Shown here piece after piece: positions 3,940-41,553 of a stretch of DNA of 62,586 bases. Each line of letters opens with the position of its first letter. Within the stretch, counting starts at the first letter, position 1. The DNA is from Patescibacteria group bacterium AH-259-L05 (GTDB lineage Bacteria > Patescibacteriota > Patescibacteriia > UBA2591 > UBA6264), in NCBI GenBank assembly GCA_027717985.1, contig JALLOO010000004.1:1-62586 (forward strand), read 5' to 3'. Below the pieces are notes generated by a model. The model was not told the origin of the DNA and made no database searches. It worked only from the letters and a program-made list of their open reading frames with translations. The translations under genes and the position numbers were made by a program.

Positions 3940-4016
3940 CGTCAAGGGGTATTGACAAATTATACACTTCCTCTATATTATATAATATAAGTTCTTTTCA
4001 TATAAACCAAAAGGAG
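3940..4016. promoter_or_regulatory. Back-to-back divergent sigma70 promoters; the plus-strand one is followed by boxA-like AGTTCTTTTCAT and an SD
   Basis: CGTCAA-N6-TTGACA (3940-3957), TATATT/TATAAT at 3974-3986, motif 3990-4001, AAGGAG 4011-4016. Confidence 0.7.
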
Positions 4017-4022
4017 AATATC

Positions 4023-5924
4023 ATGAGTGATATCAAAAAAAAGATGGGCAAGAGTATAGCCTTTGCAGAAGAACAGCGTGATACACGGCGTCTTGAAGGA
4101 TTTGCTGCTGATCTGTTTCGCGGTAAAGCAAACTTTGATCTACTTGACCCATGGTATACCCAACCAGAAGCAGAACGTCAAAAAGTAGAAGTCTTAGCAC
4201 AGAAATTTGAAAACTTCCTTACCGCACGCATTGATCCAGATAAGGTTGATCGAACTGATGAATTGCCGCCTGGAGCAATTGACTGGCTTTCTGATCATGG
4301 CTTTTTTGCATTGAAAAATCCAAAAAAATACGACGGACACGAATTATCACAAACAAGTTATAATAAGCTCATGGGTTTGAATAGCAGCTGGTGCGGAGGC
4401 ATTACTGCACTACTCTCAGCTAACAATACGATTGGCGTGGGTTTTCCTTTGAAAAAGTATGGAACACCAGAACAAAAAGAAAGGTTTTTAAAAACCGTTG
4501 GCAAGTCTCCTTCTGGATTTTCGTTTACTGAAGAAAAAGCAGGATCTGACCCCTCAAGTATGGAAGCGTATGCTGTACGGATACGTGATGCCGATGGCAA
4601 TGTTATCGGCTATGAAATCACTGGGGAAAAATGGTGGACGACCAACGCACCGCTCAATCATGAAGAGTTTCTTGCACCATATTTGTGTGTAGTTGTCAAA
4701 ACTGTAGACAAACCCGAGGATATACAAGACGAGAATTATAAGCCAGTATTTAGTGCCTTTTTTGTTCCGACTGATTTAGATGGAGTAGGGATAAAGCAGA
4801 GATGTAAGTTTCAGGGACTGCGCGGTATGTATAATGGTATCCCCCTGTTTAATCGTGTCTATGTACCGAAAAATCACCTCATAGGTGAAAAAGAAGGAAC
4901 TGGCTTTCGGATTGGTCTTGAAGCATTAAATACGGGGCGTATTTCTATCGCGGCCTCCTGTACTGCAATTTCAAAGCAATGCTTGCTTCTTGGACGCTGG
5001 TGGGGAAAAACCAGAGAACAATGGGGAAAACCTCTTGGCTATCATGAATTGCTTGGTAGCGGAATGCTTGCTTCAGGTATAGCTGATACTCTCGCAATGG
5101 AGGCAATGGTGAACTTTACCTCAGGACGACTTGATCAGGGGTTTGACACGCGACTCGAGGCAGCAATATGTAAAGTATTTGCATCTGAACGCGGCCAGAC
5201 AATAGTAGATAATACAGCACAGATATTTGGTGGTCGTGGATATGAAACAGCAAGCTCACTTGCGCGCCGTGGTGAACCACCACTGCCGGTAGAGCGTACT
5301 CTCCGGGACTTCAGGCCAGAACGTATTTTTGAAGGACCTACTGAAGTATTAGAGCTCTATGTCGTACGCGAAGGAACTGATAAATGTAAAAGGATGGGCG
5401 AAACCGTTAAGTATTCAAAAGATTGGGGGAAAAAATTAAAAGCTGCTGCTTTTTTCCCAGAAAGATACTTACTGCTCAAATTCCCCAGACGTATACCTGA
5501 TCACGTAGAAAAAAATATTGATCAGAAATTGTATAAACATGCCATCTTTGTAGAAAAAAATACGCGGAAATTCGCAAGAGCGATCATTGCAACCTATCTT
5601 AGATATCGAACAAAACTTATGCATAAGCAACTGGTGTTTGATCGACTGTTTTGGATCGCTGCCGAACTAAATGCGATGAGTATGGTATGCCTCTATGGAA
5701 CTCTCCTTGCAGAAAAATACGGTGAACAGTTCATCGATCTCGCAAACTTCTACTGTTACGAAGCACGCAATAATATCTATCAGAAACCGTTATTTAAATC
5801 TCTTAAGAAAAATAACGACGCGCTTGCCCGAAAGATTGCAAATGCACTTTTAGACGGTGCCTATGACGAGTGGCTGAAAGAAGATATTATCTCTTTTGTT
5901 CATGAACATGGATTATTGAAATAA
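4023..5924 (+). CDS. fadE: Acyl-CoA dehydrogenase (long, VLCAD/FadE-like)
   Basis: FTEEKAGSD, GEKWWTTNA, LNTGRI, QIFGGRGY, RIFEGPTE (catalytic Glu); start at the SD-preceded ATG 4023. Confidence 0.92.
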   Translation: MSDIKKKMGKSIAFAEEQRDTRRLEGFAADLFRGKANFDLLDPWYTQPEAERQKVEVLAQKFENFLTARIDPDKVDRTDELPPGAIDWLSDHGFFALKNPKKYDGHELSQTSYNKLMGLNSSWCGGITALLSANNTIGVGFPLKKYGTPEQKERFLKTVGKSPSGFSFTEEKAGSDPSSMEAYAVRIRDADGNVIGYEITGEKWWTTNAPLNHEEFLAPYLCVVVKTVDKPEDIQDENYKPVFSAFFVPTDLDGVGIKQRCKFQGLRGMYNGIPLFNRVYVPKNHLIGEKEGTGFRIGLEALNTGRISIAASCTAISKQCLLLGRWWGKTREQWGKPLGYHELLGSGMLASGIADTLAMEAMVNFTSGRLDQGFDTRLEAAICKVFASERGQTIVDNTAQIFGGRGYETASSLARRGEPPLPVERTLRDFRPERIFEGPTEVLELYVVREGTDKCKRMGETVKYSKDWGKKLKAAAFFPERYLLLKFPRRIPDHVEKNIDQKLYKHAIFVEKNTRKFARAIIATYLRYRTKLMHKQLVFDRLFWIAAELNAMSMVCLYGTLLAEKYGEQFIDLANFYCYEARNNIYQKPLFKSLKKNNDALARKIANALLDGAYDEWLKEDIISFVHEHGLLK

Positions 5925-5933
5925 TCACAACTA

Positions 5934-5963
5934 AAAATGTCCTGAAACGTTTCAGGACATTTT
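5934..5963. terminator. Bidirectional terminator / perfect palindrome
   Basis: AAAATGTCCTGAAAC-GTTTCAGGACATTTT between convergent fadE and fadA. Confidence 0.75.
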
Positions 5964-5968
5964 GTTTT

Positions 5969-7195
5969 TTAATACAGGAGTTTAAAAATTGCCGCTGCGC
6001 CCATACCGAGTCCAATACACATCGTTACCATAAGGTACTGACTATTTCTTCTTCGCGCTTCATTGATTCCTTTAATGGTAAGGTACGCACCAGTACATCC
6101 TAACGGATGGCCTAGTGCAATTGCACCGCCGTTAACATTTAATCGATCCAGTGGCATCTCAATTCCTTTTTCACTCTTTAACCGTTTAATCACCGAAATT
6201 ACCTGAGAGGCAAATGCTTCGTTTAATTCAATCAAATCTATATCATCCATAGTCAAGTGAGCGCTTCTCAAGGCCCTATCAATCGCATTCACCGGCCCAA
6301 TGCCAAAGATCTCAGGAGATACACCAGTAACCTTATAAGTGACAAGCCGAGCTAAGGGCTCTAACCCCGTACGCTCTGCCTCATCTAAGGTCATTATCAG
6401 TACTGCTGCTGCGCCATCACTCTTCTGTGATGAATTCCCTGCCGTAACGGTACCTGTGCCATCTATCTTAAAAACTGGTGGTAACTGCGCTAAGACTTCG
6501 AGCGATGTATCTTTGCGCGGGCACTCATCAATTTTTGCCTCGGATTCTTCAACGACCCTATTTCCTGATACATCAAGAGATACGTTTCGTACTGGGTAAG
6601 GCAGAATTTCAGATTTAAATTTATTTTCCTCTAATGCTTTCAGCGCTTTTTGATGAGAGTGAAAAGCAAATTCATCTTGCTCTTCTCGAGTACTGCTATC
6701 TTGTTTGGCTAAAACTTCCGCGCCTAATCCCATTGACGTATAGGTTTCTTCTTGTTCTTTCGCCAGATACGGATTCGGCGCATATCGGGTTCCGCCCATG
6801 GGAACCATAGACATACTTTCTACACCACCGGCAATAGCAACCGTTTCTAGTCCTACCGCAATATCTGTTATCTTATCAACAATAGCCTGAAGACCAGAAG
6901 AACAAAAACGATTAATCGTAGCACCCGGTATTTCAACAGGCAAACCAGCTCTTAATACTGCCACCCGAGCTACATCCATCCCTTGTTCTGACTCGGGAAA
7001 CGAACATCCAAGTCTCACATCTTCAACCGTATACGGATCAATTCCTGTACTCTCTACTATTCCTTTAAACACATGAGCGGCAAGATCATCAGGACGGGTA
7101 TTTTTAAAAACACCTCTGTTTGCTTTTCCAATTGCGGTACGGTATCCAGCAACAATAACTACGTCTTTCAATAAGTTTCTTTGATCCTTATTCAT
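5969..7195 (-). CDS. fadA: Acetyl-CoA C-acyltransferase (3-ketoacyl-CoA thiolase)
   Basis: INRFCSSGL, NEAFA, GGAIALGHPLGCTG, MCIGLGMG catalytic motifs. Confidence 0.96.
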   Translation of the reverse strand: MNKDQRNLLKDVVIVAGYRTAIGKANRGVFKNTRPDDLAAHVFKGIVESTGIDPYTVEDVRLGCSFPESEQGMDVARVAVLRAGLPVEIPGATINRFCSSGLQAIVDKITDIAVGLETVAIAGGVESMSMVPMGGTRYAPNPYLAKEQEETYTSMGLGAEVLAKQDSSTREEQDEFAFHSHQKALKALEENKFKSEILPYPVRNVSLDVSGNRVVEESEAKIDECPRKDTSLEVLAQLPPVFKIDGTGTVTAGNSSQKSDGAAAVLIMTLDEAERTGLEPLARLVTYKVTGVSPEIFGIGPVNAIDRALRSAHLTMDDIDLIELNEAFASQVISVIKRLKSEKGIEMPLDRLNVNGGAIALGHPLGCTGAYLTIKGINEARRRNSQYLMVTMCIGLGMGAAAIFKLLY

Positions 7196-9705
7196 TTTCT
7201 GCCTCCTTTCTTTAAAACATTTAATCGAGAAAGTGTATTTTTTGCTTTGAGTCCCAGTCCTAACATTTTTAATGATTTGATGCTTTTACCAATTCGATTC
7301 GCGATTCGTTCAAGCGTTTGATCTTGTGTGGCCAAAAACATCATTGCCTCACGTTCGCGATCAAGGACCACTTGCTCTGAAACGCGCTCGGGTTCACTTA
7401 AATCTCCACCAGTTAAGACTTTAACAATTTGAGTTGCAATCACCTCATCATATTCACCAATCACTCCTCCTTCTCTCATCAAGTAAAGTCCGGATTTGAG
7501 TGCACTGTAGAGTCGCTCGCCATATAGTATTACGCTTTGCTGTCGTGGAGGCTGATAATTTCTAGACAAGGTGAGTACCAATTGCTTTGCTTCGGCAATC
7601 AAGCGGTCTTTATTCATAACAATCACATCACTCTCTCTTAAATATCCTAGTTCTTTAGCTTCAAACGCTGAGGTAGATACTTTTGCCATACCAATAGTCA
7701 TTAGTGTCCTTTGGATAAATGGTAAGGGATCAAATTCGCGCTTGAGTCCTAAATCATGAGGGACATTCTCAAAGGTTCTCAATAACATTTCTTTTGTTCC
7801 ACCTCCGGCAGGAATTAAACCAACTGCAACCTCGACAAGACCCATATAGGTTTCATGTGCTGCGCACACCATATCGGCATGAAGACATACTTCGCTTCCG
7901 CCGCCAAACGTAACACCAAACGGTGCTGCGACTACCGGCTTGGGCATATATTTTAATGCCATATTCGCGTCCTGAAACTCCTTTAAAAAACGCTCAACTT
8001 TATCTTCCTTTCCTTCAAGCAGTGTCTTGACAATTAATTTCAGATTTGCGCCTGCGGAAAAATGCTCGCCATTATTACCAATTACCAATCCTTTGCATGC
8101 ATCATTTGTGCTTGCCTCTTCTGCCGCAGTATACATCATAGAAATGGCATCTAAACCAATCGTATTCATTTTTGAATGAAACTCCAAGCACCACACGCCG
8201 TCTCGCATGTCAATCAAGCTTGCCTCACTGTTCTCTTCAATAACATGTCCTGTATCTTTTAGGTCTTTGAGAATAATAACCCCTTCTGGTCTGTTTAATT
8301 TCTCATACTGTCTGTTATTACAACCAAAAAAGTATGTTGTTCCATTTTCGCTAAAATAAAATGACTTACGCTTGGTCTTTAACACATCGTTAGCAAGTGC
8401 GGGAACTGGTTGTTTATTTTTCTCTAAGAGCTTAACTACTTCAGATACACCTAAGGCATCCCAGATTTCAAACGGGCCTAACTCCCATAAAAATCCTTTT
8501 TTCATGGATAGATCAACGGCAACAATATCATCAGCAACTTCAGACACATATTCAGCTGCATGAGATAAAGTGGATAAAAGCGTTTTTTGAAGATATGATG
8601 CTACGCGGTCTTCCCCATTGATAAGAAACTTGATTCGCTGGGCAGTATCTATGATCTTTTTCCCTTGCTTAATGCTTTTGAACTTTGGCTTTTTCCGCGG
8701 ATGATACTCCAGGGTTTGAGGATCAACAGCCAGTATTTTACTCTTTTGTCCTTCTCGCTTGATTTTTTCATAAAATCCTTTTCCTGCCTTTTGTCCGATC
8801 CATCCGTTAGCAACCAATTGATTGACAAACTCAGGAAGAACCAGTGTTTCTTTATAAAAGTCGTCGGGAAGCGCTTCATGAAGATTGTTTACCACGCTGG
8901 CGACTATATCAATTCCCACCACATCAAGAGTGCGAAAGGTTGCACTCTTAGGCCAACCAATGGCCTTGCCCGTAATCGTGTCAACCTCTTCAATACTATA
9001 GCCATCTTCTATCATTGCAGAGATATTCTTTACTACGCCAGGGATCGCAATACGATTGGCAATAAAGCCAGGAACATCATGCGCAATAACTACGGTTTTA
9101 CCAAGTCTTTGATCACAAAAATCACTGATATACGCCAACACTTCTTTACTGGTCTCATTCGTAGGAATCATCTCTACAATAGCCTGATAGCGCGGGGGGT
9201 TAAAAAAGTGTGTTCCTAAAAAATTCTTGCGTAGATCATCAGGTAATACTTGAGCTAACGTAACCAAGGGAATTCCTGACGTATTTGAACTAATAATGGT
9301 ATCGGGGGAAACTATATCAGCTACCTGACGGAAAAGTTTATGTTTAATATCTACCTTTTCAACCACTGCCTCTATAACCCAATCTACGTCCTTTAGTTTT
9401 TCAAGATCGTCATTCCACTCAACATTTTCAAGTTTTTCTCGCGAATCACTAAAACTGCCAATCTCGATCAATTTGGCAAATTCAGACAACGCAAATGGGG
9501 TCGGATTTAACGACTTTGCCATTGCCAGTCCTTTGAGCACAAGAGAATTTCTATTTGCTGCATCTTCGAGTTCATCACTATCAAACTCCCAGTCAGGAAT
9601 CACATCTAAAAGTAACACGTCGCATCCGGCATTAACAAGATGGGCAGCAATTTGGCTTCCCATCACACCAGCGCCTAACACACCGACTTTTCTGATACTT
9701 GTCAT
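7192..9705 (-). CDS. 3-hydroxyacyl-CoA dehydrogenase / enoyl-CoA hydratase (FadN-type domain order)
   Basis: GAGVMG Rossmann motif, SNTSGI, HFFNPP, GFIANR; C-terminal crotonase FSAGANL, GGGSE, GLVEVAVGLIPAGGG; ATGA overlap with thiolase. Confidence 0.95.
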   Translation of the reverse strand: MTSIRKVGVLGAGVMGSQIAAHLVNAGCDVLLLDVIPDWEFDSDELEDAANRNSLVLKGLAMAKSLNPTPFALSEFAKLIEIGSFSDSREKLENVEWNDDLEKLKDVDWVIEAVVEKVDIKHKLFRQVADIVSPDTIISSNTSGIPLVTLAQVLPDDLRKNFLGTHFFNPPRYQAIVEMIPTNETSKEVLAYISDFCDQRLGKTVVIAHDVPGFIANRIAIPGVVKNISAMIEDGYSIEEVDTITGKAIGWPKSATFRTLDVVGIDIVASVVNNLHEALPDDFYKETLVLPEFVNQLVANGWIGQKAGKGFYEKIKREGQKSKILAVDPQTLEYHPRKKPKFKSIKQGKKIIDTAQRIKFLINGEDRVASYLQKTLLSTLSHAAEYVSEVADDIVAVDLSMKKGFLWELGPFEIWDALGVSEVVKLLEKNKQPVPALANDVLKTKRKSFYFSENGTTYFFGCNNRQYEKLNRPEGVIILKDLKDTGHVIEENSEASLIDMRDGVWCLEFHSKMNTIGLDAISMMYTAAEEASTNDACKGLVIGNNGEHFSAGANLKLIVKTLLEGKEDKVERFLKEFQDANMALKYMPKPVVAAPFGVTFGGGSEVCLHADMVCAAHETYMGLVEVAVGLIPAGGGTKEMLLRTFENVPHDLGLKREFDPLPFIQRTLMTIGMAKVSTSAFEAKELGYLRESDVIVMNKDRLIAEAKQLVLTLSRNYQPPRQQSVILYGERLYSALKSGLYLMREGGVIGEYDEVIATQIVKVLTGGDLSEPERVSEQVVLDREREAMMFLATQDQTLERIANRIGKSIKSLKMLGLGLKAKNTLSRLNVLKKGGRK

Positions 9706-9865
9706 TTTCTACTCCTTTTTGTAATGAACGTTTACATCCGCGATGTGCAAGATGTAATCGTATTATATCAATTGTGGATATTGTGTCAATGCTTATTGAC
9801 ATATTATGTTACTATATGGTATAATAATATTAAATCTGTTCAATACAAAATAGGAGGAAATTAAT

Positions 9866-10036
9866 ATGCGTGCACGACCTGCTTTCTTCATTGTTGTTGG
9901 TGCCGGACTTATAATCGGAGCTGCTCTAGGATATGTGCCTGCTACCATACCAATCGCATTTATCGCAACTCCTGTAGGTATAAAAATACAAGCATGGTGG
10001 CGTAAATCAAGGAGAGAAAAAAAGACCATATCGTAA
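9866..10036 (+). CDS. 56-aa small membrane protein (MRARPAFFIVVGAGLIIGAALG...WWRKSRREKKTIS), absent from the ORF track
   Basis: TTGACA 9796, TATAAT 9820, SD AGGAGG, hydrophobic segment, terminator overlapping the stop. Confidence 0.7.
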   Translation: MRARPAFFIVVGAGLIIGAALGYVPATIPIAFIATPVGIKIQAWWRKSRREKKTIS

Positions 10037-10085
10037 TAAGAGATATGGTCTATTTTTTTATCCAAAAGCAAAAGGATAGCATTCG

Positions 10086-10700
10086 CTATCCTTGTAAGGC
10101 AATTTTGATTACGTCTGGACGTTGCAATGTGTTAACTGAAGCAATGTCGAGCGCCTCGGCTACTAATAAAAGCAGCTCATCTCTAGTTGCTAAAATCACC
10201 TTTTTAGAATTTTGTTTTTGCAAACGGTGCGCATCAGTCAAAATCTTGATATCAGTTTGTCCAATAAGGTCATAAACGGTTATCTTAAAATAATCTATCG
10301 CCTGCTTGTCTCTGGTGGCCTTTCTTTTGAAAAATTTGCGCAGTTTCTCCTGGCCTTCGTTGCTGAAGTCTCTTAATTGCATCCGGGTAATTTTTTCTTT
10401 TACATCAGTTTCTTTTGATTTAAAACGACGCCACTTATTTTGCTTACGCATTTGGAAAAGCATCTTTTTCACCAGTTTTGCCTGTTTTCGAACATAGGGA
10501 CCTCCTCTTACTGACCCCTTGCGACTAATTTTCTTAATTTGCCATGAAACAGCAGATGGAATATAGACATTGAAAAAATGTGTTAAGCAATGTCTCTCTT
10601 TATATTTGAGAAGAATAGAAGTGTCAACAATAATTAATGGCTCGGTAAAGATTTGCTTTTCTTGATAATCAGCAAGCGAACAACATTCTGATTCTGACAC
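10086..10700 (-). CDS. PIN-domain protein
   Basis: IIVDTSILL ... TDIKIL ... LATRDELL acidic PIN motifs; own TTGACA-N17-TATACT promoter. Confidence 0.7.
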   Translation of the reverse strand: MSESECCSLADYQEKQIFTEPLIIVDTSILLKYKERHCLTHFFNVYIPSAVSWQIKKISRKGSVRGGPYVRKQAKLVKKMLFQMRKQNKWRRFKSKETDVKEKITRMQLRDFSNEGQEKLRKFFKRKATRDKQAIDYFKITVYDLIGQTDIKILTDAHRLQKQNSKKVILATRDELLLLVAEALDIASVNTLQRPDVIKIALQG

Positions 10701-10863
10701 GTAACCCCCTTTCTTGTTTGTTTGGAAATTTATTGATCAAAGAACCAACCTGTATTATCAATAGTATATCACATTTTACTGTCTATGTCAATAGCACTTG
10801 CTTTTTTATTTGTTAATGATATAATCTACATATAGTTTTTTTTATACAGAGGAAGGAGGAAAC

Positions 10864-11466
10864 ATGAAAAGATATGTAATTGACCCCAAACTTTTCCAAG
10901 AAGCACAGCAAAATGCTGTTATCACAATGAGCACACTTATATCCAAAAATAACACGATAGAAGGTGCAGGAATCATTATTTCAGAAAATAAAGTCCTTGT
11001 GCCACTTCACTGTACCACAGGCAAAACAGTAGTTGTCAAAGATGGAAGAACATATCCGGCGAGAAATGAAGGTTCTTTTCTAGGCGAAGCAGAGATAGCA
11101 GTACTCACGATAAACAATTCTGCATTTCATAAACCTAATCTAAAAATAGGACCTAATCTTGAACAAGGAGAATTTGTTTTTTGGACCGCACCATTTAACA
11201 AATTTAAAAAACCAGTATTTAGTGGATATATTACTACCTCAAGTATTGGCGATGATGATATGGTGTACTATTATGTTGATGGCATTGTTATCCCGGGTAT
11301 GTCTGGAGCCGGCGTATATAACTATAGAGGTGAATTAGTTGGTATGCTCAAGGGCATTCAAACGTATAATGAGGCGAAAATGGGCATTATATTACCGGTT
11401 ACCTATCTTTTGCCATTTATTTACTCATACAGAGAAGATTTACGTCCGCCAAAAGCAGAAGCATAA
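10864..11466 (+). CDS. Trypsin-like serine protease (S1)
   Basis: GAGIII, VPLHC (His), PGMSGAGV (Ser); SD AAGGAGG. Confidence 0.8.
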   Translation: MKRYVIDPKLFQEAQQNAVITMSTLISKNNTIEGAGIIISENKVLVPLHCTTGKTVVVKDGRTYPARNEGSFLGEAEIAVLTINNSAFHKPNLKIGPNLEQGEFVFWTAPFNKFKKPVFSGYITTSSIGDDDMVYYYVDGIVIPGMSGAGVYNYRGELVGMLKGIQTYNEAKMGIILPVTYLLPFIYSYREDLRPPKAEA

Positions 11467-11656
11467 AATTGCATATTAAAAAGACCGCTTCATATACAGT
11501 GAGTGGTCTTTTTATTTGACTCTTGCTTTTTTTATTTTGTGTGTTACTATAATTCCTAAGGGCGAATCAAATAGAAAAGTTTACTTTTATATTTGTGAGC
11601 CCTGACGGAATTTCAAGCTTTGCTTATATATATGCTATTTGACATTTTATTAATGA

Positions 11657-11729
11657 CGCGGGGTAGAGCAATTGGCAGCTCGCCAGGCCCATAACCTGGA
11701 GGTTGAGGGTTCGAGTCCCTCCCCCGCAA
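11657..11729 (+). tRNA. tRNA-fMet(CAT), initiator
   Basis: C1:A72 mismatch (CGCGGGG...CCCCGCA-A), anticodon arm CCAGG-CCCATAA-CCTGG, T arm GAGGG-TTCGAGT-CCCTC. Confidence 0.92.
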
Positions 11730-11767
11730 TATGGCCCTTCATTGCCTAAAGCAATGGAGGGCAACTT

Positions 11768-11839
11768 GGCAGGGTAGCTCAGCGGTAGAGCACCAGTATC
11801 ATAAACTGGCCGTCACGGGTTCAAATCCCGTCCCTGCTA
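11768..11839 (+). tRNA. tRNA with CAT anticodon (probably elongator Met; Ile2 not excluded)
   Basis: GGCAGGG/CCCTGCT acceptor, CCAGT-ATCATAA-ACTGG anticodon arm, ACGGG-TTCAAAT-CCCGT T arm. Confidence 0.9.
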
Positions 11840-11984
11840 CTCTCAAAAAAGCGAGATCATTGCCTCGCTTTTTTGGTTGGGGAAAAGTGGTGTTGACAAG
11901 AACGAACATTTGTGTTATAATGGACAATGAAAGTGAAAGAGAGGTTCTTTCATAAATATCACTCCAAACAAAAGGGAGGAAAAC

Positions 11985-12146
11985 ATGAAAAAGTTTATCG
12001 AGTTGCTTCTAGTCGCAATACCTGTAAGGTTTTATCGGGATTTTCTTTGTAAAGATGCAGGACATATCTGCAGGGACTGTTTTATGCGAAAAGGCTATTA
12101 TTTATGGTACATGGATTCTTTCGGTGAAAAAAGGCCAGGGTTGTAA
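11985..12146 (+). CDS. 53-aa small protein with C-x4-H-x-C-x2-C, absent from the ORF track
   Basis: TTGACA-N17-TATAAT promoter, SD GGGAGG, terminator AAAAGGCCAG...CTGGCCCTTTT overlapping the stop. Confidence 0.65.
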   Translation: MKKFIELLLVAIPVRFYRDFLCKDAGHICRDCFMRKGYYLWYMDSFGEKRPGL

Positions 12147-12360
12147 CTCTGGCCCTTTTTTAAGAAATAGTGTGCAGCAGGGTGGGGTAGATTAGAGCTT
12201 AAACCCCAAGAGTAAGGGCTACCTCACTTTTCAATCGCTGCCAAACCATTAATTCTCTCATAATCTGGTTCCCCCAGTAGTAGAGCATAGCTCACTACGG
12301 GGCAGGCAACTAAATCCCACGAGGTCTATTTTTTTATTTAAAACAAAAAACGGCGTGCAT

Positions 12361-13605
12361 TTATTTGCAGCCGTCTTTTTTTATCAGTTTTTTCCAAGTC
12401 ATTGCTGGTATGTAATTCTCTAAAATTTCAATAAAATCTTGTACAAGTGTCGGGCCGCTCAATGTTTTCATCAATCTCCCGTCTACAAATATCGGAGCTT
12501 TCGGATCTTCTCCCGTGCCAGGCAATGAGATTCCAATATCAGCATGTTTTGACTCGCCTGGTCCATTTACCACACATCCCATAACTGCAATATTTAAATC
12601 TTCAACGCCTGGATATCTTTCTTTCCATTGCGGCATTTGTTTTGCAATATATGTGGTAATCTCCTCTGCCATTGCCATAAAAAAGGTGCTGGTTGTGCGT
12701 CCACATCCTGGACACGCAGCAACTGAAAGCATAAAATTTCGTATGCCCAGTGATTGAAGCACATGCTGGCATATATATACCTCTGTTGTGCGATCCTCGT
12801 CTGGGGCAGGGGTTAGTGAAGCTCGAATCGTATCCCCTATTCCTTCCGAGAGCAAACAGGTCAATGCCGCAGTTATGGCAACAATACCTTGTAAGCCCAT
12901 ACCAGCCTCGGTGAGCCCGATATGAAGCGGATAATCACAGCGGCTCGCAAGTACCCGATTAACGGTAACAACATCTGAAACTGACGAAAGTTTTGCGCTC
13001 ACCACAATTTTATTATGAGCAAATCCGAGTTTTTCTGCCTGCTGTGCTGATTCTAATACACTTTCTACCACCGCATCCAAGAGCACCGTATGGGAATCCT
13101 GTGGACTCTGACGTTTTGCATTTTCATCCATGAGACGCGTCAAAAGCTGTTGATCAATTGATCCCCAGTTCACCCCAATGCGTACGGGCTTATTGTTTTT
13201 GATCGCAACCTCGATGATCTGTTGAAAATGCGGATCACGGTTCTTGCCCGCACCAACATTTCCTGGATTAATACGGTACTTATCTAAAGTCTTCGCACAT
13301 TCAGGAAAATCACGCAATAAAATATGTCCGTTATAATGAAAATCGCCGATTAAAGGCACATCTATATCCTGATCTATTAATGCCTTTTTTATCTCTGACA
13401 CCGTTGCTGCGGCTTGCTTGGTATTTACGGTAATACGCACCAACTCAGACCCTGCTTCAAAAAGCTCTCTTATCTGCTTAACCGTAGATTTAACATCTGC
13501 CGTATCAGTATTGGTCATTGATTGAACCCGTATCGGGTTATCTCCACCAATACCAACATCACCGACCATAACAACTTGAGAAACGCGTCTTGTATATGTA
13601 TTCAT
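12361..13605 (-). CDS. ispG: (E)-4-hydroxy-3-methylbut-2-enyl-diphosphate synthase, [4Fe-4S]
   Basis: [44 protein letters not shown]. Confidence 0.97.
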
Positions 13606-14555
13606 TTCCTCTTCCTCTCTGCTTCTTTTCGAAGCCGTTTTAAGGCAGGAGAAGCAAAAGTTATATCTTCATCTATGCCTTGAAGCTCCTCAATATCATC
13701 TGCGCCAAACTCTCGAAGCTTATCAACTACCGCTTGGAGTATACGCTCTGGCGTTGATGCTCCTGAACTTACCCCTATTACGTTCTTATCTTTTAATTGA
13801 TCTTTGTTCAAACCATTCGCATCCTCAATAAAATAGGTGGGAACACCGCAGGAAACAGCAACCTCAAACAAACGATTGGTATTAGAACTCCTCTCTTGAG
13901 ATCCGACAATATATATGATATCAGAAACCTTTGCAAGATTTTTTACTGCATCCTGTCTATACTGTGTTGCATAGCAGATATCTGAAGTCTGTGGCCCTAT
14001 AATAGGGGGGAAACGTTTTTTAAGAGTCTGGATTATCTCTTTGGTCTCATCAACACTCAGAGTTGTCTGTGTTACGTACGCTACTTTTAATGGATTAGAA
14101 ACAACAACACGTTCTGCTTCCTCAACTGACCCTACTACAACCACGTGATCAGGTGCCTCACCCGTCACCCCTATTTCCTCAGGATGTCCTTCGTGGGCAA
14201 TATAAATAATAGTATAATCATCTCGTGCCCAACGCTTAACTTCAAGGTGAACCTTGAGTACCAAGGGACACGTTGCATCAAGAATATCCAGATACTTTTC
14301 ACGCGCTTCATCCCATACGGTTGGCGCTACGCCATGAGCACGTAACACTACTTTTGCTCCTCGCGGTATATGTTTGATTTCCTCAACAAATACAGCTCCT
14401 TTTTGTGCCAATGGCTCAATCGCATGTCTATTATGAACAATCCAGCCATATACATAAACTGGCGAACCATACACTTTAAGCGCAAGATCTACTACCTCAA
14501 TTGCCTGATCAACACCTGCACACGGACCTTGTGGTTTTGCTAATTTAACTTGCAT
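13602..14555 (-). CDS. ispH: 4-hydroxy-3-methylbut-2-enyl diphosphate reductase, [4Fe-4S]
   Basis: GPCAGV, IVHN, AHG, DATCPLV, QTT, ICYAT, SSN, GASTP; start at the SD-preceded ATG 14555. Confidence 0.96.
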
Positions 14556-14703
14556 GGAATCCTCCTTTCTCAATGATCTAATTCCTACATACCATATCAA
14601 AAATATGATATGGTGTCAATGCTCTTGACAAAAACTTTGATTTGTGGCAGACTATATACAAAGTTCATTCACATACATAAACCAAACAATCAAGGAGGAA
14701 CAC

Positions 14704-16026
14704 ATGATGTGGAAAAAGTACTTTGGTGCAATACTGGTCATAAGTATTTTCTTTGCCTGCAGCTTTGATAGCCCGACGAAACCAACGCAAGAACAACCGG
14801 AAACAGTACTGAATGATACAACGCGCTATATTATAACATTTGAAACAGCCGAGGGCGCCGATATAGCAGAGATGATTTTTACGACCTTATTTGGCTATAA
14901 CATCTTTTACGTTGCTACAGAAATCCACAGCCTTATTGTTGATATGCCGCGGTTAAAAACATTGTCAAAAACAGTTTCAAGTCCGGGAGGAAGTTTTCGT
15001 CTTGAAAAGGTCACAGGAGAGCTACGCGCAACCTTTACAACTGCAAGTGGTGATGAATTTAATGCAATGTATGTAGAGGAAGATGATCCAAAAATGTATT
15101 GGCAGCTCAATACTGATACATATGAACTCCAGGGAGATACCAGCTGGCTTTGGCATATCAATATGATTCAAGCAGATCAATCATGGAATGCTGGTTTTAA
15201 AGGAGATGGAGTAACAACCATCTATACTGATGGAGGATTATGTCCTGACTATCAATCACATCCAGCATTTGCTGCCATTGATACCTCTATATCATTTAAC
15301 CCCTATACTGATTCAACTGATATAGAGGCAGACAAATACGAAACAAACCATGGATCTCTTGTTTTCTATTTAGGAGTAGGACAACCTTATCCTTATCAAG
15401 AAAACCAGTACTTGAGTGGTGTAGCTCCTGGGAGCAGAGCTGGATTGGTTAAACTATTTGAAATGCCGTGGGCGTCTCGGGCAATGGCAATTAAAGCAAC
15501 TGATATCGCCATCGACTTTAACCCGGACGTCATCTCAATGAGCTGGGGCGGCGGCGGAAAATCACCCACACTTCAATTACTTTTTGAAAAAGCTTATGAA
15601 AAAAGAATTGTACTGGTGGCCGCTGCTGGAAATGATGATGATTCTCCTGTACTGTATCCTGCGGGCTATTCCCAGGTCATTGCAGTCGGCGCTGTTTACG
15701 GTAATGGAGAAAAAGCATATTTTAGTAATTATGGACAAGACCTTGAAATTATGGCGCCAGGAGTAAATGTTACATCATTTTATGGTTGTGAAATTGGAGC
15801 AGCTTCTGGAACCTCTGTGTCAACGCCTTTGGTTGCAGGAGCAATAGCACTGTATATTCAAAAGTATAGGCAGATCAGAAATAATGCTTATACTAGACCA
15901 TCGCTTCTGATGCTTCGCTATCATTTACACAATTCTGCAGAAAAAGAAAATATGGGCAATAACGACTGGACTAATTACATGGGCTTTGGAATCGTAAAAG
16001 CCATGAATTTATTAGCGCAACTTTGA
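14704..16026 (+). CDS. Subtilisin-like S8 serine peptidase, predicted lipoprotein
   Basis: Signal ending in lipobox FFAC; DGG, NHGS, AAAGN, SGTSVSTP catalytic motifs; SD AAGGAGG. Confidence 0.88.
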   Translation: MMWKKYFGAILVISIFFACSFDSPTKPTQEQPETVLNDTTRYIITFETAEGADIAEMIFTTLFGYNIFYVATEIHSLIVDMPRLKTLSKTVSSPGGSFRLEKVTGELRATFTTASGDEFNAMYVEEDDPKMYWQLNTDTYELQGDTSWLWHINMIQADQSWNAGFKGDGVTTIYTDGGLCPDYQSHPAFAAIDTSISFNPYTDSTDIEADKYETNHGSLVFYLGVGQPYPYQENQYLSGVAPGSRAGLVKLFEMPWASRAMAIKATDIAIDFNPDVISMSWGGGGKSPTLQLLFEKAYEKRIVLVAAAGNDDDSPVLYPAGYSQVIAVGAVYGNGEKAYFSNYGQDLEIMAPGVNVTSFYGCEIGAASGTSVSTPLVAGAIALYIQKYRQIRNNAYTRPSLLMLRYHLHNSAEKENMGNNDWTNYMGFGIVKAMNLLAQL

Positions 16027-16099
16027 TTAGCAAACGTCATAAAAAGCTCTCATCGCACTATTGATGAAGAGCTTTTTACTTTTGATATATAATGCAAAA

Positions 16100-16636
16100 C
16101 TACTTTTGGTGTAAAATGTTGAATCGTTTTGTCAAAAATTCTATGACAAAAACTGCAAGGATGGCAGTAACAATCCCGCCTACAATATCAATGGGGTAAT
16201 GAACACCAACAAATATTCTGCTTAACCCAACTAAAAAAGCAGGGATTAATAAAATTAAGCCAAACTTTTTCCAATCAACTAATACGCTGAATACCATGAC
16301 AAACGCAAGAGAGGTATGCCCTGAGGGAAAAGAATAGTCAGTAGGAGGAACGAAAAACTTTGTTAATTGATAAATTTCATTATGCGTTATAAACGGGCGA
16401 GGACGAGCGACGACTTGATTGGTTATATATTCAACAAGAGCGACAAGAATAACCGCGCTTATGATTTTAACTGCCATGATACCAATTTTTTTTCTTTTTT
16501 TTGAGAAAAAATATACCCCAAAAATAATAAGAGGAAGGGCATAAATTAAAAAATCAGAAAATATAATGCCTATCATATCAAGCCACAACCACTTGCCTGC
16601 AAAGCTATTAATAAATGTAAGTAAAGAATAATCCAT
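16100..16636 (-). CDS. PAP2 family phosphatase (undecaprenyl-PP phosphatase-like)
   Basis: RPRP, SFPSGH, SRIFVGVHYPID motifs. Confidence 0.92.
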   Translation of the reverse strand: MDYSLLTFINSFAGKWLWLDMIGIIFSDFLIYALPLIIFGVYFFSKKRKKIGIMAVKIISAVILVALVEYITNQVVARPRPFITHNEIYQLTKFFVPPTDYSFPSGHTSLAFVMVFSVLVDWKKFGLILLIPAFLVGLSRIFVGVHYPIDIVGGIVTAILAVFVIEFLTKRFNILHQK

Positions 16637-18357: not shown

Positions 18358-18486
18358 AGTACTAAAATAAAAAAGAAATAAAAAAGACTCTGATTACTAT
18401 ATCAGAGTTTTTTTCTTGACGTAGGTAGGTGTATATGCTATACTAAATCTGTTCTTTTCAAAAACATCAACAGGGAGGTAGTAACG

Positions 18487-19032
18487 ATGAAAAGTAATGA
18501 AGTTGTTACCTTGCGTCGTGATTGTGAAGGAACATTGATTCCTGCAGGCACTAAAGTTGCTCTCAGGAAAGGTCACGAGGTGAGAATCACCCAATCGCTT
18601 GGAGGAAACTATACAGTAGTTATCCATGATAATATGGTACGTATTGATAGCAAAGATGCTGATGCGCTTGGAAAAGAACCTATAAGTTCATCAAAGGGCA
18701 TCAAGCTAACAGGTAATAGAACGATTGAGGAATTAGTATGGGAACAGATGAAAACGTGCTATGATCCTGAAATTCCGGTCAACATTGTTGATCTCGGCCT
18801 CATCTACTCTTGTGAAATCAAACAGTTGTCAGACCACGGAAACAAGGTAGAGATAAAAATGACACTAACCGCTCCTGGCTGCGGCATGGGAAATATTATT
18901 GCGGATGAGGTTAAGAATAAGGTTCTATCCATACCTGGTGTTACCGAAGCAAGTGTAGAGCTGGTCTGGGATCCGCAATGGAATCAAAGTATGATGTCTG
19001 AAACAGCTAAACTTCAACTCGGGATGTTATAA
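18487..19032 (+). CDS. sufT: Long-form SufT Fe-S cluster assembly protein
   Basis: N-terminal QSLGGNYT domain plus DPEIPVNIVDLGLIY, TLTAPGCGMG, WDPQW. Confidence 0.9.
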   Translation: MKSNEVVTLRRDCEGTLIPAGTKVALRKGHEVRITQSLGGNYTVVIHDNMVRIDSKDADALGKEPISSSKGIKLTGNRTIEELVWEQMKTCYDPEIPVNIVDLGLIYSCEIKQLSDHGNKVEIKMTLTAPGCGMGNIIADEVKNKVLSIPGVTEASVELVWDPQWNQSMMSETAKLQLGML

Positions 19033-19056: not shown

Positions 19057-19099
19057 TCCACACAACCTCCTCTTGATTTTTTTCACTATGTGTGCTATA
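19057..19099 (+). repeat. 43-bp promoter module, copy 1 (identical to 20124-20166)
   Basis: TCCACACAACCTCCTCTTGATTTTTTTCACTATGTGTGCTATA, containing TTGATT-N17-TATA. Confidence 0.9.
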
Positions 19100-19142
19100 G
19101 TATTACTGCTCTTTAAAACCAAAACATGAAAGGGAAAAAATA

Positions 19143-20054
19143 ATGAGTAATAAAAAGAAGAAAACCGCTGGCAAGCCTCAAGTCACGATATCTCCAAAGG
19201 ATTACAAGGGAAAGGTTAATCCAGATTGGTGTGTCGGATGTGGAGATTTTGGTGTCTTGAACGCCTTTCAAAAGGCGTGTTCAGAACTTGGACTCCCGTC
19301 CCATAAGATTCTAGTGGTTAGTGGTATCGGCTGTTCCTCAAATTTCCCTGGATTTTTCAACTCCTACGGTATGCATACACTTCATGGCCGTCCCCTCCCC
19401 GTGGCCACAGGCGCTAAACTTGCCAATCATGAACTGACCGTAATCGTTACTGCCGGTGACGGAGATGGTTATGGGATTGGTGGTAACCATTTTACACACA
19501 CTGCGCGTCGAAATATTGATCTCACCTACCTGGTCATGAACAACCAGATCTACGGACTCACCACCGGCCAGATATCTCCCACGAGTCGTATGGGAATGAA
19601 GACCAAGAGCACGCCATACGGAAGCGTGGAATTACCCGTTAACCCCCTTACGTTAGCTATCATGGGCGGAGCCACCTTTGTGGCTCGAGCCTACAGTAGT
19701 GAGGGCAGCTACTTCGTAAACCTTATAAAACAGGCAATTCAGCATAAAGGCTTTTCCTTTATTGATATATTCAGCCCTTGCGTCACCTATAATCACGAGA
19801 ATACTCATACATTCTTTAAGCAACGGATAAAGCACTTGGAAGACGAGGGTCACGACCCCACTGACTGGAAAACAGCATGCGAGAAGGCCATGATCTGGGG
19901 GGATGAAATCTATACCGGGCTCTTCTTACAAAACACAGAGAGACGGACACTTGAGCAATTGGAACCGATTCTTGACAAAGGAGGACCTCTTGCACATCGG
20001 TCACTCGGCCTTACTGAAGCGCAGTCTTCAAAAATCATTGAGAAGCTAATGTAG
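19143..20054 (+). CDS. korB: 2-oxoacid:ferredoxin oxidoreductase beta subunit
   Basis: WCVGCGD, SGIGCSS, LHGR, GDGD TPP motif, NNQIYGLTTGQ, SPCVTYN. Confidence 0.93.
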   Translation: MSNKKKKTAGKPQVTISPKDYKGKVNPDWCVGCGDFGVLNAFQKACSELGLPSHKILVVSGIGCSSNFPGFFNSYGMHTLHGRPLPVATGAKLANHELTVIVTAGDGDGYGIGGNHFTHTARRNIDLTYLVMNNQIYGLTTGQISPTSRMGMKTKSTPYGSVELPVNPLTLAIMGGATFVARAYSSEGSYFVNLIKQAIQHKGFSFIDIFSPCVTYNHENTHTFFKQRIKHLEDEGHDPTDWKTACEKAMIWGDEIYTGLFLQNTERRTLEQLEPILDKGGPLAHRSLGLTEAQSSKIIEKLM

Positions 20055-20123: not shown

Positions 20124-20166
20124 TCCACACAACCTCCTCTTGATTTTTTTCACTATGTGTGCTATA
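20124..20166 (+). repeat. 43-bp promoter module, copy 2
   Basis: Exact match to 19057-19099. Confidence 0.9.
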
Positions 20167-20235
20167 CTATATGTGCTCTTTGAAAACTGGCTCACCTCGT
20201 ATGAGGCGAACCACAAAATATAAGGAGGTTATGTC

Positions 20236-20550
20236 ATGACCTTTATTATCACTGAACCATGTATTGGCGTGTGTGATACTGCATGTGTGGATGTATGCCC
20301 GGTTGATTGTATTCATTTTGACGTGGACGAGAAAGATGCCGGACAAAAAATGAAAGAAATGAAAGCAGCAGATCCGAATGTGGACCTAGAAAAACTTCAG
20401 CTGTTTATTGATCCTGAAGAATGTATTGACTGCGCTGCATGTGAACCAGAGTGTCCGGTAGAAGCCATCTTTCCCGAAGATGAAGTCCCTGATGTATGGA
20501 AAGACTTTATTAAGATGAACTATGAGGCCTTTGGTCAAGAGGCCCCGTAA
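20236..20550 (+). CDS. Dicluster ferredoxin (FdxA-like)
   Basis: CIGVCDTACVDVCPVDC and CIDCAACEPECP. Confidence 0.93.
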   Translation: MTFIITEPCIGVCDTACVDVCPVDCIHFDVDEKDAGQKMKEMKAADPNVDLEKLQLFIDPEECIDCAACEPECPVEAIFPEDEVPDVWKDFIKMNYEAFGQEAP

Positions 20551-20897
20551 TGGTAAAAAAGAAAGCTCATTCACACTATAAGGATGTGCCTGAATGCGTT
20601 GATAAAATTGGTACCAAGAAAAAAAGACCACGGCTTATGGCAGTGGTTGACGAAGATAGCTGCACCGGATGTCAGGTATGTATTCCATTTTGTCCTGTTG
20701 ACTGTATTGAAACGGTCCCGTATGAAAAGTACGATATCCCTATCCCGCCGGTTCAAATCAGATTTGATGAATGTATTGGATGTCAAATCTGCGCACGGGT
20801 ATGCACTAAGCTTACCTGGGACGCCATTCGGATGATTCCCACAGACGAATTTGAACAAACCTATGGTATTAAAATATCTGATAAAGGCCCGCAATAA
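20550..20897 (+). CDS. 2x[4Fe-4S] ferredoxin-like protein
   Basis: CTGCQVCIPFCP and CIGCQICARVC; TAATG coupling to the upstream ferredoxin. Confidence 0.9.
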   Translation: MVKKKAHSHYKDVPECVDKIGTKKKRPRLMAVVDEDSCTGCQVCIPFCPVDCIETVPYEKYDIPIPPVQIRFDECIGCQICARVCTKLTWDAIRMIPTDEFEQTYGIKISDKGPQ

Positions 20898-20987
20898 AAT
20901 AAAACTATTGTGAGGCCTTTTCTTTTTTTAATACTGTGCTATACTGTGTATAGATTCTTTGAAAACAAATATGAAAGGAGATAACAA

Positions 20988-22124: not shown

Positions 22125-22189
22125 CTTTTTTTTATACTATGGTATACTAAACCTGTTCTTTTGAAATCTAAGAATGGAGGGGAAAATCT

Positions 22190-22549
22190 ATGACAAAAAC
22201 GAAAGAAAAAACTCAAGAACCAATCCTTGAAGGAGTTACCCTAACTGAACAAGCTGCCCAACAGATTAAGAAGGTAAAAAAAGAAGATGAGGGAGAATAC
22301 CTTCGCGCATCAGTAACTGGGGGTGGATGTTCTGGCCTAAACTATCAACTTACCTGGGATAGTACGCTCAACGAATTTGATAAACAATTCGAAAGTCACG
22401 GCATTACCATTGTCGTGGATCTGAAATCTCTGCTCTACCTCAAAGGCATGGAAATTGATTACTCCACTGATATGCTCTCGGGAGGATTTCAATTCAGAAA
22501 TCCTAATGCCACAAGAACATGCGGTTGCGGAACATCATTTTCCGTATAA
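22190..22549 (+). CDS. iscA: A-type Fe-S carrier (IscA/SufA/ErpA, HesB family)
   Basis: GGGCSG, NPNA-x-TCGCGTSF. Confidence 0.93.
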   Translation: MTKTKEKTQEPILEGVTLTEQAAQQIKKVKKEDEGEYLRASVTGGGCSGLNYQLTWDSTLNEFDKQFESHGITIVVDLKSLLYLKGMEIDYSTDMLSGGFQFRNPNATRTCGCGTSFSV

Positions 22550-22654
22550 AAATAGAAAGAAAAGTCCCTTACAATCAGGGGCTTTCTTTTTTTATATAGT
22601 ATGCTATACTATTATATATGTTCTTTAGAATCTATAATATAAGGAGATACACTC

Positions 22655-35980: not shown

Positions 35981-36062
35981 AGCTATTGACATAAATTAAT
36001 TCTTATGATAAACTATATACATCGTTCGTTAACGTTCATCTCTTTAGAGGAGGAAAGCTAAG

Positions 36063-39804: not shown

Positions 39805-39834
39805 ACCTGGCTCGTATGAGACAGGTTTTTTCTT

Positions 39835-40593: not shown

Positions 40594-40773
40594 AAAGATT
40601 TAGCGGTCCACGAGTCCCTCGACAACCCCGCCGAGAAATGAAATAACTCGAGGTGCAAACCTGCTCACAACTGAGCGGGTTTTTTTAGTTTCCATGACAT
40701 CTTTAATAAAATTCTAGCCTGCCCCCTCCCATTCAATACTTGTAAGGTTATTTTATATTGATATAATTACAAT

Positions 40774-40953
40774 ATGGAGACAAAAACCGATAAAGAAACA
40801 TACTATAAATGTAGGAAATGCGGCGATGAGATCTATTGGAATACGCGCAAACAAATGACATGGTGTAAATGTAAGACCATAGCTGTTGATGGTTGTGAGT
40901 TTTATGTGCGATTAACTGGAGACGAAAAAAATTTTAAAGAGATACAAAAATAA
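40774..40953 (+). CDS. 59-aa Cys-rich, zinc-ribbon-like protein (CRKCGD...WCKC...VDG), absent from the ORF track
   Basis: Open frame with ATG 6 nt after TGA-TATAAT. Confidence 0.65.
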   Translation: METKTDKETYYKCRKCGDEIYWNTRKQMTWCKCKTIAVDGCEFYVRLTGDEKNFKEIQK

Positions 40954-41113
40954 ATTCTTTAATATAGTTTAACTGCATTTTTATATTATACCATATTAGA
41001 AAAATAATGTTTAAATTTTCCTCAACACCTCAACAAATACACTTGACTTTTAATAATGTTATGATATACTATTAATAACAACTTTTTCATCCTAAAAAAG
41101 GAGGAGAAAACAA

Positions 41114-41320
41114 ATGGAAGCTATTCAAAAAGAGCTGCGCGACTTAGTACGTACTTATCTGTCTAACAATCCAGGAAGTGAACGCCAACTTGCTGATGAA
41201 CTCGGCGCGTCAATTCCAATAATAAAACATTGGGCAAGCGGAAAAAACAGTCCCCCTCCTATCATAGCTCAACCATTAGTTGAAAAACTGAAAGAGATAT
41301 TGCAAAAGCAGGACAACTAG
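41114..41320 (+). CDS. Small XRE-like helix-turn-helix protein
   Basis: SERQLADELGASIPIIKHWASGKNSP; SD AAGGAGG. Confidence 0.75.
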   Translation: MEAIQKELRDLVRTYLSNNPGSERQLADELGASIPIIKHWASGKNSPPPIIAQPLVEKLKEILQKQDN

Positions 41321-41352
41321 TCCTGCTTTCTCTTTTTATATATATCCCCTTC

Positions 41353-41482
41353 TGTCATTCCGCTTCGCGGAATGACAAGGAGCGCGGAATGACAAGGAGC
41401 GCGGAATGACAAGGAGCGCGGAATGACAAGAGCGGGATGACAAGGGAACGCAGGATGATAAAAGGGGCGTGGAATGACAAGA
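41353..41482. repeat. REP-like palindrome with tandem 17-bp right-arm copies
   Basis: TGTCATTCCGC-TTC-GCGGAATGACA, then CGCGGAATGACAAGGAG repeated 3-4 times, then degenerate copies. Confidence 0.9.
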
Positions 41483-41553
41483 GAGGATTGACAGGATTTT
41501 ATACCATAATATACTAATAGTGTTGTTCTTCAAATTTTAAAGCAAAAGGAGGG

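Follow-up and report, generated by a model that had tools for sequence, protein, structure and literature searches.

A boxA-like motif in the leaders of accessory genes of a Patescibacteria genome

The Nus factors are usually viewed as rRNA specialists, with few mRNA targets on which they act through or against Rho. Their RNA site, boxA, is conserved at G2, C5 and U6, which are intolerant of transversion, and its U8 lies in a pocket of the NusB-NusE heterodimer (PMC3177189). The consensus reads UGCUCUUUAACA in Escherichia coli and AUGAUCUUUGAAA in Bacillus subtilis (PMC13753749), and GYTCTTTAANA has been published for the gamma-proteobacteria (PMC5725501). In the suhB type of mRNA boxA, a site no more than 50 nt from the start codon is proposed to repress translation by looping the RNA to the polymerase, not by direct occlusion, and the repression is independent of close contact with the Shine-Dalgarno (SD) sequence; gamma-proteobacterial genomes have 0-7 perfect sites each, centred on Nus-factor genes, and Rho termination follows (Baniulyte et al., 2017, PMC5725501). 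The B. subtilis boxA-like element is described from rRNA operons only, where it follows a 5'-terminal hairpin and where NusB binding was observed by NMR (PMC13753749). Here, a boxA-like motif is described in the leaders of protein-coding genes of Patescibacteria group bacterium AH-259-L05 (GenBank assembly GCA_027717985.1). It was noticed in contig JALLOO010000004.1 (62,586 nt), the whole of which is called the window below (contig C34 of genome G000 in our numbering). An earlier note on the window, made from its letters and open reading frames, had proposed that the motif places a set of protein-coding genes under Nus-factor control.

The assembly amounts to 1.03 Mb in 63 contigs, is 77.5% complete and has ~38% G+C; gene calls were made with our own crude open reading frame caller. 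Likeness to boxA was scored in bits with a matrix built from the 16S leader boxA sites of 17 relatives only, the genome's own sites being left out. The motif had been placed 5-8 nt past the -10 box in six consecutive units of Fe-S genes, and all six 12-mers are indeed found there on the + strand:

18436..18444, + strand: unit 1, extended -10 TGCTATACT; -35-like TTGACG at 18416
18450..18461, + strand: unit 1, boxA-like motif TGTTCTTTTCAA, 5 nt after the -10; its G is the predicted +1; 11.5 bits
18487..19032, + strand: unit 1, gene for an Fe-S assembly protein of the SufT/DUF59 type (PF01883)
19093..19101, + strand: unit 2, extended -10 TGCTATAGT; upstream 40 nt near-identical to those of unit 3
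19107..19118, + strand: unit 2, boxA-like motif TGCTCTTTAAAA; 15.0 bits; from its G an exact GYTCTTTAANA, the gamma-proteobacterial consensus
19143..20054, + strand: unit 2, gene for the beta subunit of a 2-oxoacid:ferredoxin oxidoreductase (PF02775, PF12367)
20160..20168, + strand: unit 3, extended -10 TGCTATACT
20174..20185, + strand: unit 3, boxA-like motif TGCTCTTTGAAA; 14.2 bits
20236-20550 and 20550-20897, + strand: unit 3, genes for two 4Fe-4S ferredoxins
20937..20945, + strand: unit 4, extended -10 TGCTATACT, without a -35 match
20953..20964, + strand: unit 4, boxA-like motif GATTCTTTGAAA, core G replaced by A; 8.4 bits
20988-21521 and 21518-22090, + strand: unit 4, genes for a NuoB-like protein (PF01058) and a NuoI-like ferredoxin
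22140..22148, + strand: unit 5, extended -10 TGGTATACT
22154..22165, + strand: unit 5, boxA-like motif TGTTCTTTTGAA; 7.1 bits, 8-nt core intact
22190..22549, + strand: unit 5, gene for an Fe-S carrier of the IscA/ErpA type (PF01521)
22561..22595, + strand: hairpin and T run resembling an intrinsic terminator, closing unit 5
22602..22610, + strand: unit 6, extended -10 TGCTATACT
22619..22630, + strand: unit 6, boxA-like motif TGTTCTTTAGAA; 10.3 bits
22655..24106, + strand: unit 6, gene for SufB (PF01458, PF19295)

Each of the six units carries TG(T/C)TCTTTnnAA, one of them as GATTCTTT; written as 13-nt RNA, motifs of the array type read GUUCUUUGAAAAC and GCUCUUUAAAACC. The core TG(T/C)TCTTT is present in five of the six sites, with A at position 2 in the remaining one. 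The distance from the extended -10 (TGnTATA(C/G)T) to the motif is 5, 5, 5, 7, 5 and 8 nt in units 1-6, and the motifs sit ~22-50 nt 5' of SD-led genes. Both spacers, from -10 to motif and from motif to SD, vary in sequence between units. Four sites score 10.3-15.0 bits and the other two 8.4 and 7.1. The pattern KRYTCTTTNNAA matches the window 10 times compared with 3.86 expected, a number reached in 0 of 100 shuffles, and six of these matches are the array sites. A near-identical promoter segment of ~40 nt (…CCACACAACCTCCTCTTGATTTTTTTCACTATGTGTGCTATA…) at 19066-19106 and 20133-20173 represents a local promoter duplication between units 2 and 3.

The motif extends well beyond the array. In its strand-specific form, G(T/C)TCTTT(A/G/T)(A/C)AA, it precedes ~47 transcription units of the assembly. 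When the 32 nt behind the -10 of 169 strong gene-facing promoters were searched without a prior motif, GTTCTT came out as the most enriched hexamer (28 occurrences, 0.7 expected, 2 antisense), above the SD hexamers, including AGGAGG. Among 717 promoter-like sites, GTTCTT clusters 7-14 nt past the -10, where it occurs 29 times, compared with ~0.3 times per position farther downstream. Aligned past GTTCTT, the leaders continue with T/A, A/T, A/C, A (24 of 28), A and A. Scanning of 737 upstream zones with the rrn matrix gave the following numbers:

≥9 bits: 46 sense, 12 antisense, shuffle mean 7.0
≥10 bits: 35 sense, 6 antisense, shuffle mean 3.8
≥12 bits: 19 sense, 2 antisense, shuffle mean 1.1

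At ≥10 bits, the density of matches is 0.91 per kb in leaders and 0.08 (sense) and 0.20 (antisense) per kb in coding sequence. Matrix matches peak 6-11 nt past the -10, with 26 sites there compared with ~0.26 per position beyond 22 nt and almost none antisense. The lack of enrichment over shuffled leaders that the earlier note had allowed for is therefore not what was found, given this peak and the 46 sense matches. A -10 lies within 2-14 nt of 32 of the 47 sites, and the spacing between the two ranges from 2 to 23 nt overall; in five sites, a stable hairpin precedes the motif in place of an adjacent -10, as it does in the 23S leader. The start codon follows within 50 nt in 37 sites, mostly at 24-36 nt, which agrees with the distance described for the suhB type, and 7-20 nt separate the motif from the SD.

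The bases under selection coincide with those important for boxA. In leaders, TTCTT has a G before it in 28 of 32 cases, compared with 15% genome-wide. TTCTTT is enriched in leaders (20 versus 1.8 expected), as is GCTCTT (6 versus 0.36). No enrichment was observed for TTATTT (7 versus 5.2), TTGTTT (2 versus 2.0) or TTTTTT (7 versus 3.0), so that TTNTTT is enriched only for N = C. Since the two bases selected here, G and C, are the counterparts of G2 and C5 in boxA, the motif is distinct from a generic T-rich signal. In sequence, it matches the 8-nt core that NusB-NusE contacts at five of the six array sites. Two other sources of the pattern were considered and rejected. The matrix contains TTGACA-like columns, which could let -35 boxes pass for boxA, but a possible -35 was seen in only one of the 47 matches. 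Duplication of leaders does not explain the recurrence either, because the 47 leaders form 37 groups on their flanks alone; clear duplicates are two pairs only, one at C12 13546/14396 and the other formed by window units 2 and 3 in their upstream halves.

For comparison with rRNA, the 16S upstream regions of this genome and of 19 of the 30 relatives searched were examined. G[TCA][TA]C[TGA]TT[ATG][AC] is present in 18 of these 20 leaders, with the consensus GTTCTTTAACAATT, and the mRNA motif agrees with the order-wide rrn consensus GTTCTTTAACA. The mRNA leader variants GTTCATTACAA, GCTCATTACAA and GATCTTTAAAA recur in the rrn leaders of relatives; a further motif type is GUUCAUUACAA. In this genome, whose own rrn motif type is GUUCGUUGACAAU, the 16S element GTTCGTTGACA lies 187 nt before the 16S gene and directly 5' of the stretch in which leader and trailer pair. 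Because of this location, the precursor RNA includes the element, in the position that is classical for boxA. The processing duplex itself has a folding energy of -54.3 kcal/mol, compared with -25.4 on average and -38.8 at the lowest for shuffled trailers. The 23S leader carries GTTCGTTAACA, 148 nt before the 23S gene and behind a hairpin, an arrangement similar to that of the B. subtilis leader and seen again at the window site at 9719 (below); three array sites also have the G/A-AAA tail (TCTTTGAAA) of the B. subtilis element. Like the boxA of rrn leaders, the mRNA sites have the 8-nt core TG(C/T)TCTTT and in a minority follow a hairpin; they are probably also single-stranded and, judged from predicted start sites, in the transcribed sense strand. 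They differ from it in standing in protein-coding leaders, only 24-36 nt from the start codon and often at the predicted 5' end of the RNA. In the comparison with the rrn boxA suggested in the earlier note, the mRNA motif agrees with the order-wide consensus and departs at a single core position from the copies in the genome's own 16S and 23S leaders.

The rRNA genes have peculiarities of their own. The 16S gene (contig C12) contains a ~1.1-kb insertion near its 3' end (L001 3298-4390), with an open reading frame that resembles, by eye, a LAGLIDADG-type homing endonuclease and an Rfam match to group-II-intron D1-D4 at L001 3587-3701. Its 3' end reads ...GGATCACCTCATTT and not the usual ...CCTCCTTT, though leaders use GGAGG. 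The 16S gene is not linked to the 23S gene (contigs C12 and C2; loci L001, L004 and L005), and a tRNA and a protein gene follow the 16S. The 23S match covers ~5.4 kb for a 2.9-kb model, and insertions are probably present there too.

The proteins that would read a boxA are encoded in this genome. NusG, for which the earlier note had asked, is present, together with NusA, S10 (rpsJ/nusE) and two genes of the SuhB family, of which the window holds one:

1614-2393 (end also placed at 2429), + strand: SuhB/inositol-monophosphatase-family gene, possible partner in a Nus complex

A Pfam search for NusB was blank in this genome and in the same-genus genome G001, and positive in 27 of the 31 genomes searched. 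Absence of nusB, which the note had regarded as fatal, was ruled out by tblastn with the neighbours of the gene in relatives. Bases 1-108 of contig C30 open with 35 codons (VLGAIYED...) that correspond to the conserved C-terminus of NusB, the remainder of the gene and its upstream neighbours lying beyond the assembly. In four relatives, nusB is followed by a gene of 225-230 aa, the homologue of which begins at base 122-125 of C30. Because the contig opens with the NusB C-terminus beside this conserved neighbour, nusB is truncated by the contig edge rather than absent; relatives such as G004 have it complete. The NusB of a relative matched solved NusB chains with E-values down to 9e-24, and the Aquifex protein of the NusB-NusE-boxA crystal with E = 1.7e-20. 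None of the 31 genomes searched in the order, of which 25 are at least 90% complete, gave a match to the RNA-binding domain of Rho, and control genomes scored as expected.

The genes behind the motif are mostly accessory, as had been claimed. When homologues were sought by tblastn (E ≤ 1e-10) in 400 kb of G011, a member of the same family, they were found for 3 of 47 motif genes compared with 144 of 690 others that have an upstream region (Fisher p = 0.013), and accessory is a fair label for this reason. Outside the window, 20 of 40 motif genes are without a Pfam family. The others include a fused 2-oxoacid dehydrogenase E1, an acyl-CoA dehydrogenase, a proline dehydrogenase, an indoleamine-dioxygenase (IDO)-family protein, a class III aminotransferase, a GH57 enzyme, an M49 peptidase, a DUF444 protein, FtsH and a ClpP-family protein.

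The relatives that were compared are kin, not independent samples. Their genomes range from 0.5 to 1.4 Mb, and the two same-genus assemblies, this genome and G001 (1.0 and 1.4 Mb, each ~75% complete), are among the largest searched. The Fe-S array is present in G001 at 84%-89% identity, with the motif retained in the alignable units, and 11 orthologous leader pairs have 9-11 of 11 core positions identical, their flanks being alike. In the 400 kb of G011, the matrix gave 11 sense and 4 antisense matches compared with 2.8 in shuffles; several of them are clustered within one contig and repeat the promoter-motif-SD arrangement. In 55 genomes from the order, the motif followed by an SD within 4-16 nt occurs 112 times, compared with 52 for a back-to-front control; this genome accounts for 12 (control 0) and G001 for 8 (control 0). 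The layout exists in the family and is commonest in this genus. A 30-nt match shared by several genomes from three other families at first resembled a conserved boxA leader but was discarded as a false positive; in the two loci inspected, it appears to fall in a coding sequence of the other strand and is not followed by a start codon.

A cluster in G011 (contig C1, ~140-180 kb; L066, L067) comprises at least 5 units in ~20 kb, each with a TTGACA promoter, G(T/A)(T/A)CATTAAA and an SD, and may be an accessory island of the same leader design. In G001 (L037-L039), ~1.3 kb between array units 1 and 2 is unaligned, and a different promoter-leader (…TATAGTTATAGATGCTCTTTCGAGA…) precedes the SufB unit, where this genome has unit 5.

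The best reading of these data, to which we give a probability of roughly one half, is that the motif acts as an mRNA boxA bound by NusB-S10. The motif would be bound in the nascent leader by the NusB-S10 heterodimer, which NusG, NusA and possibly a protein of the SuhB family would keep tethered to the transcribing polymerase, as on rRNA. The favoured outcome would be a suhB-type damping of translation initiation, with the RNA loop between boxA and polymerase excluding the ribosome; it is favoured because of the short distance, 7-20 nt, from the motif to the SD that follows. The output of the accessory genes may in this way be tied to the free pool of NusB and S10, and hence to the state of ribosome synthesis. 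A second possibility, starting from the same binding event, would be altered elongation, with less pausing. Protection of acquired genes from Rho termination, which the earlier note had also entertained, cannot be the outcome if the lineage lacks Rho, as the search of 31 genomes of the order indicates. That part of the regulon proposed there is unsupported, and its other parts (the motif, its position, the factors and the accessory character of the genes) fit.

Compared with the suhB type, the sites are numerous here (~35-47 counted with the lineage consensus and 3 with the strict one) and precede mostly accessory genes. Rho-dependent termination and a Nus-factor target, both part of the suhB type, were not found (Rho in 0 of 31 genomes; no site before rpsJ, nusG or the SuhB-family genes). 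It is conceivable, though on the whole doubtful, that boxA serves this Rho-less, ultra-small bacterium as a general 5' tag on about 1 in 20 gene-upstream regions, chiefly of lineage-specific accessory metabolism. Such a NusB-S10 regulon would be several-fold above the gamma-proteobacterial 0-7 perfect sites, although the genome is only a fraction as large, and would couple these genes to the state of ribosome synthesis in a cell with very few classical regulators. Should the motif function as a boxA, Nus-factor control can become a broad mRNA-level programme, and can operate so in a lineage without Rho; this would also open a way into the gene regulation of uncultivated bacteria with small genomes, a nearly blank field. 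In one full-text literature search, none of the papers listed dealt with boxA or NusB in Patescibacteria or the candidate phyla radiation, which is no proof that such work does not exist.

Several observations weigh against an mRNA boxA. The 16S and 23S sites of this genome read GTTCGTT(G/A)ACA, with G at the position of U6, where at least 28 mRNA copies have T; the mRNA motif is nearer to the rrn consensus of relatives than to the genome's own, and that the G variant does not predominate in mRNAs counts mildly against a shared reader. The absence of a boxA-like site upstream of rpsJ, nusG and either SuhB-family gene means that the Nus autoregulation widespread elsewhere was not seen. By the strict GYTCTTTAANA rule, only 3 sites lie within 50 nt of a start codon, which is within the published range, and the size of the set consequently rests on the looser lineage consensus. 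In the four array units in which the motif's G is the predicted +1, the first core nucleotide is possibly untranscribed, and a DNA-level initiation element fits equally. Selection cannot be shown from the 11 leader pairs with G001 because they are 85%-94% identical overall. Enrichment is weak in most relatives: a cruder pattern was enriched in this genome only, with 25 matches (control 11), compared with 15 in G001 (control 24) and numbers at or below the control in most others. The shuffles used for the matrix scans and the hexamer enrichment preserve base composition only, and the regular expression that selected the rrn leader sites was composed after sight of those sequences.

A DNA-level initial-transcribed or start-site element would fix the start at the G and tune how the polymerase escapes from strong sigma-70-type promoters, independently of Nus factors. 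This explanation, the alternative named in the earlier note, is weakened and unlikely, but would account for the G lying 6-11 nt past the -10 in 26 promoter-like sites, for its coincidence with the predicted +1 in the array and for the -10 within 2-14 nt of 32 sites. The spread of 2-23 nt is, however, wide for a signal read by the initiating polymerase, and the five sites behind hairpins are at least ~25 nt from a -10. The motif is also conserved in rRNA leaders 5' of the processing stem, mostly without an evident adjacent promoter, and the selected G and C are contact bases of boxA. Were it a start-site element nonetheless, it would still be the most over-represented hexamer after strong promoters and useful for annotating the transcription units of this genus.

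Pairing of UUCUUU with the purine-rich SD (AAAGGAG) could form a weak leader hairpin that lowers translation initiation or stabilizes the 5' end. Minimum-energy folds of 37 leaders often pair the motif with the SD (a mean of 5.4 of its 11 nt are paired), and two paralogous leaders on C12 fold at -11.9 and -11.1 kcal/mol. The folds are weak in general (median -3.1 kcal/mol) and no better than those of shuffles (mean z -0.31), and a sequestering hairpin was rejected as the main explanation on this ground. Pairing with GGAGG would moreover select a CCTCC-like sequence, not an invariant G, a T-flanked C and an A-rich tail, and the variant GTTCATT recurs despite its weaker pairing. We regard pairing with the SD as improbable. 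The C12 leaders belong to two adjacent paralogous units (13546-15010), the long and near-identical folded leaders of which have the motif paired with the SD.

A NusG-dependent pause signal is slightly less plausible again. In B. subtilis, the non-template motif TTNTTT at -11 to -6, with the last three T critical, halts the polymerase and is spread outside the proteobacteria (PMC9963633), and ~20% of 1600 NusG pauses lie in 5' leaders (PMC11602163). A halt ~6 nt after the motif, at about +15 to +20, could let a ribosome load. The motif described here is similarly T-rich, on the non-template strand and in the 5' leaders of a non-proteobacterial lineage; TTCTTT satisfies TTNTTT in four of the six array sites, and NusG is present. 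Here, however, only C occupies the middle base and a G is selected 5' of the motif, features that the pause motif (PMC9963633) lacks. Enrichment for N = C only speaks against the generic pause motif, which was rejected for it, the preceding G (28 of 32) is no requirement of NusG pausing, and the recurrent CTCTTT and TTCATT variants break TTNTTT.

An operator for an Fe-S DNA-binding regulator of the IscR/SufR type, overlapping the start site, is suggested by the six neighbouring Fe-S/redox units but was rejected as highly improbable, the motif being asymmetric without a consistent palindrome, strongly strand-specific and carried by ~40 unrelated genes, including those for the IDO-family dioxygenase, proline dehydrogenase, GH57 and FtsH.

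Sites elsewhere in the window had been listed as related to the array motif. They exist, but are uneven on the rrn matrix, from 13.0 down to 4.5 bits; one more site, at 36024, is given with them:

9719..9730, - strand: CGTTCATTACAA, 13.0 bits, behind the leader hairpin and 24 nt before ATG
7192-9705, - strand: gene at the 9719 site, 3-hydroxyacyl-CoA dehydrogenase/enoyl-CoA hydratase fusion, promoter TGATATAAT at ~9770
3990..4001, + strand: AGTTCTTTTCAT, 8.8 bits, leader of an acyl-CoA dehydrogenase gene (4023-5924)
14662..14673, + strand: AGTTCATTCACA, 9.5 bits, leader of a subtilase gene (14704-16026)
36024..36034, + strand: GTTCGTTAACG; a TAAACT -10 lies 9 nt upstream and the ATG of a 123-aa gene without a Pfam family 39 nt downstream
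41524..41535, + strand: TGTTCTTCAAAT, 7.2 bits, after TTGACA-17-TATACT, leader of a 97-aa gene without a Pfam family (41554-41847)
10735..10746, - strand: GGTTCTTTGATC, core present but a low score of 4.5 bits, leader of a PIN-domain gene
14568-14579, - strand: related site, 6.1 bits
11943, + strand: related site, 5.7 bits

The hairpin reported before the site at 9719-9730 is present, with a folding energy of -9.2 kcal/mol. The site at 36024..36034 is new relative to the earlier note and has the same G variant as the rrn boxA of this genome. About 20 further matrix matches of at least 10 bits lie inside coding sequence of the window, mostly antisense to genes, and a bare match outside a leader means little for this reason.

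The part of the window from 3900 to 16100 contains beta-oxidation-type genes and IspG/IspH (12361-14555), a metabolism rich for so small a genome, to which the proline dehydrogenase, IDO-family and fused 2-oxoacid dehydrogenase E1 genes of other contigs also belong. Elsewhere in the assembly, dispersed repeats of 70-180 nt (C45 ~48257-48439 and ~44093-44205, C12 ~18451-18530 and C23 ~48070-48142) form a family with dozens of matches in G001 at 75%-97% identity.

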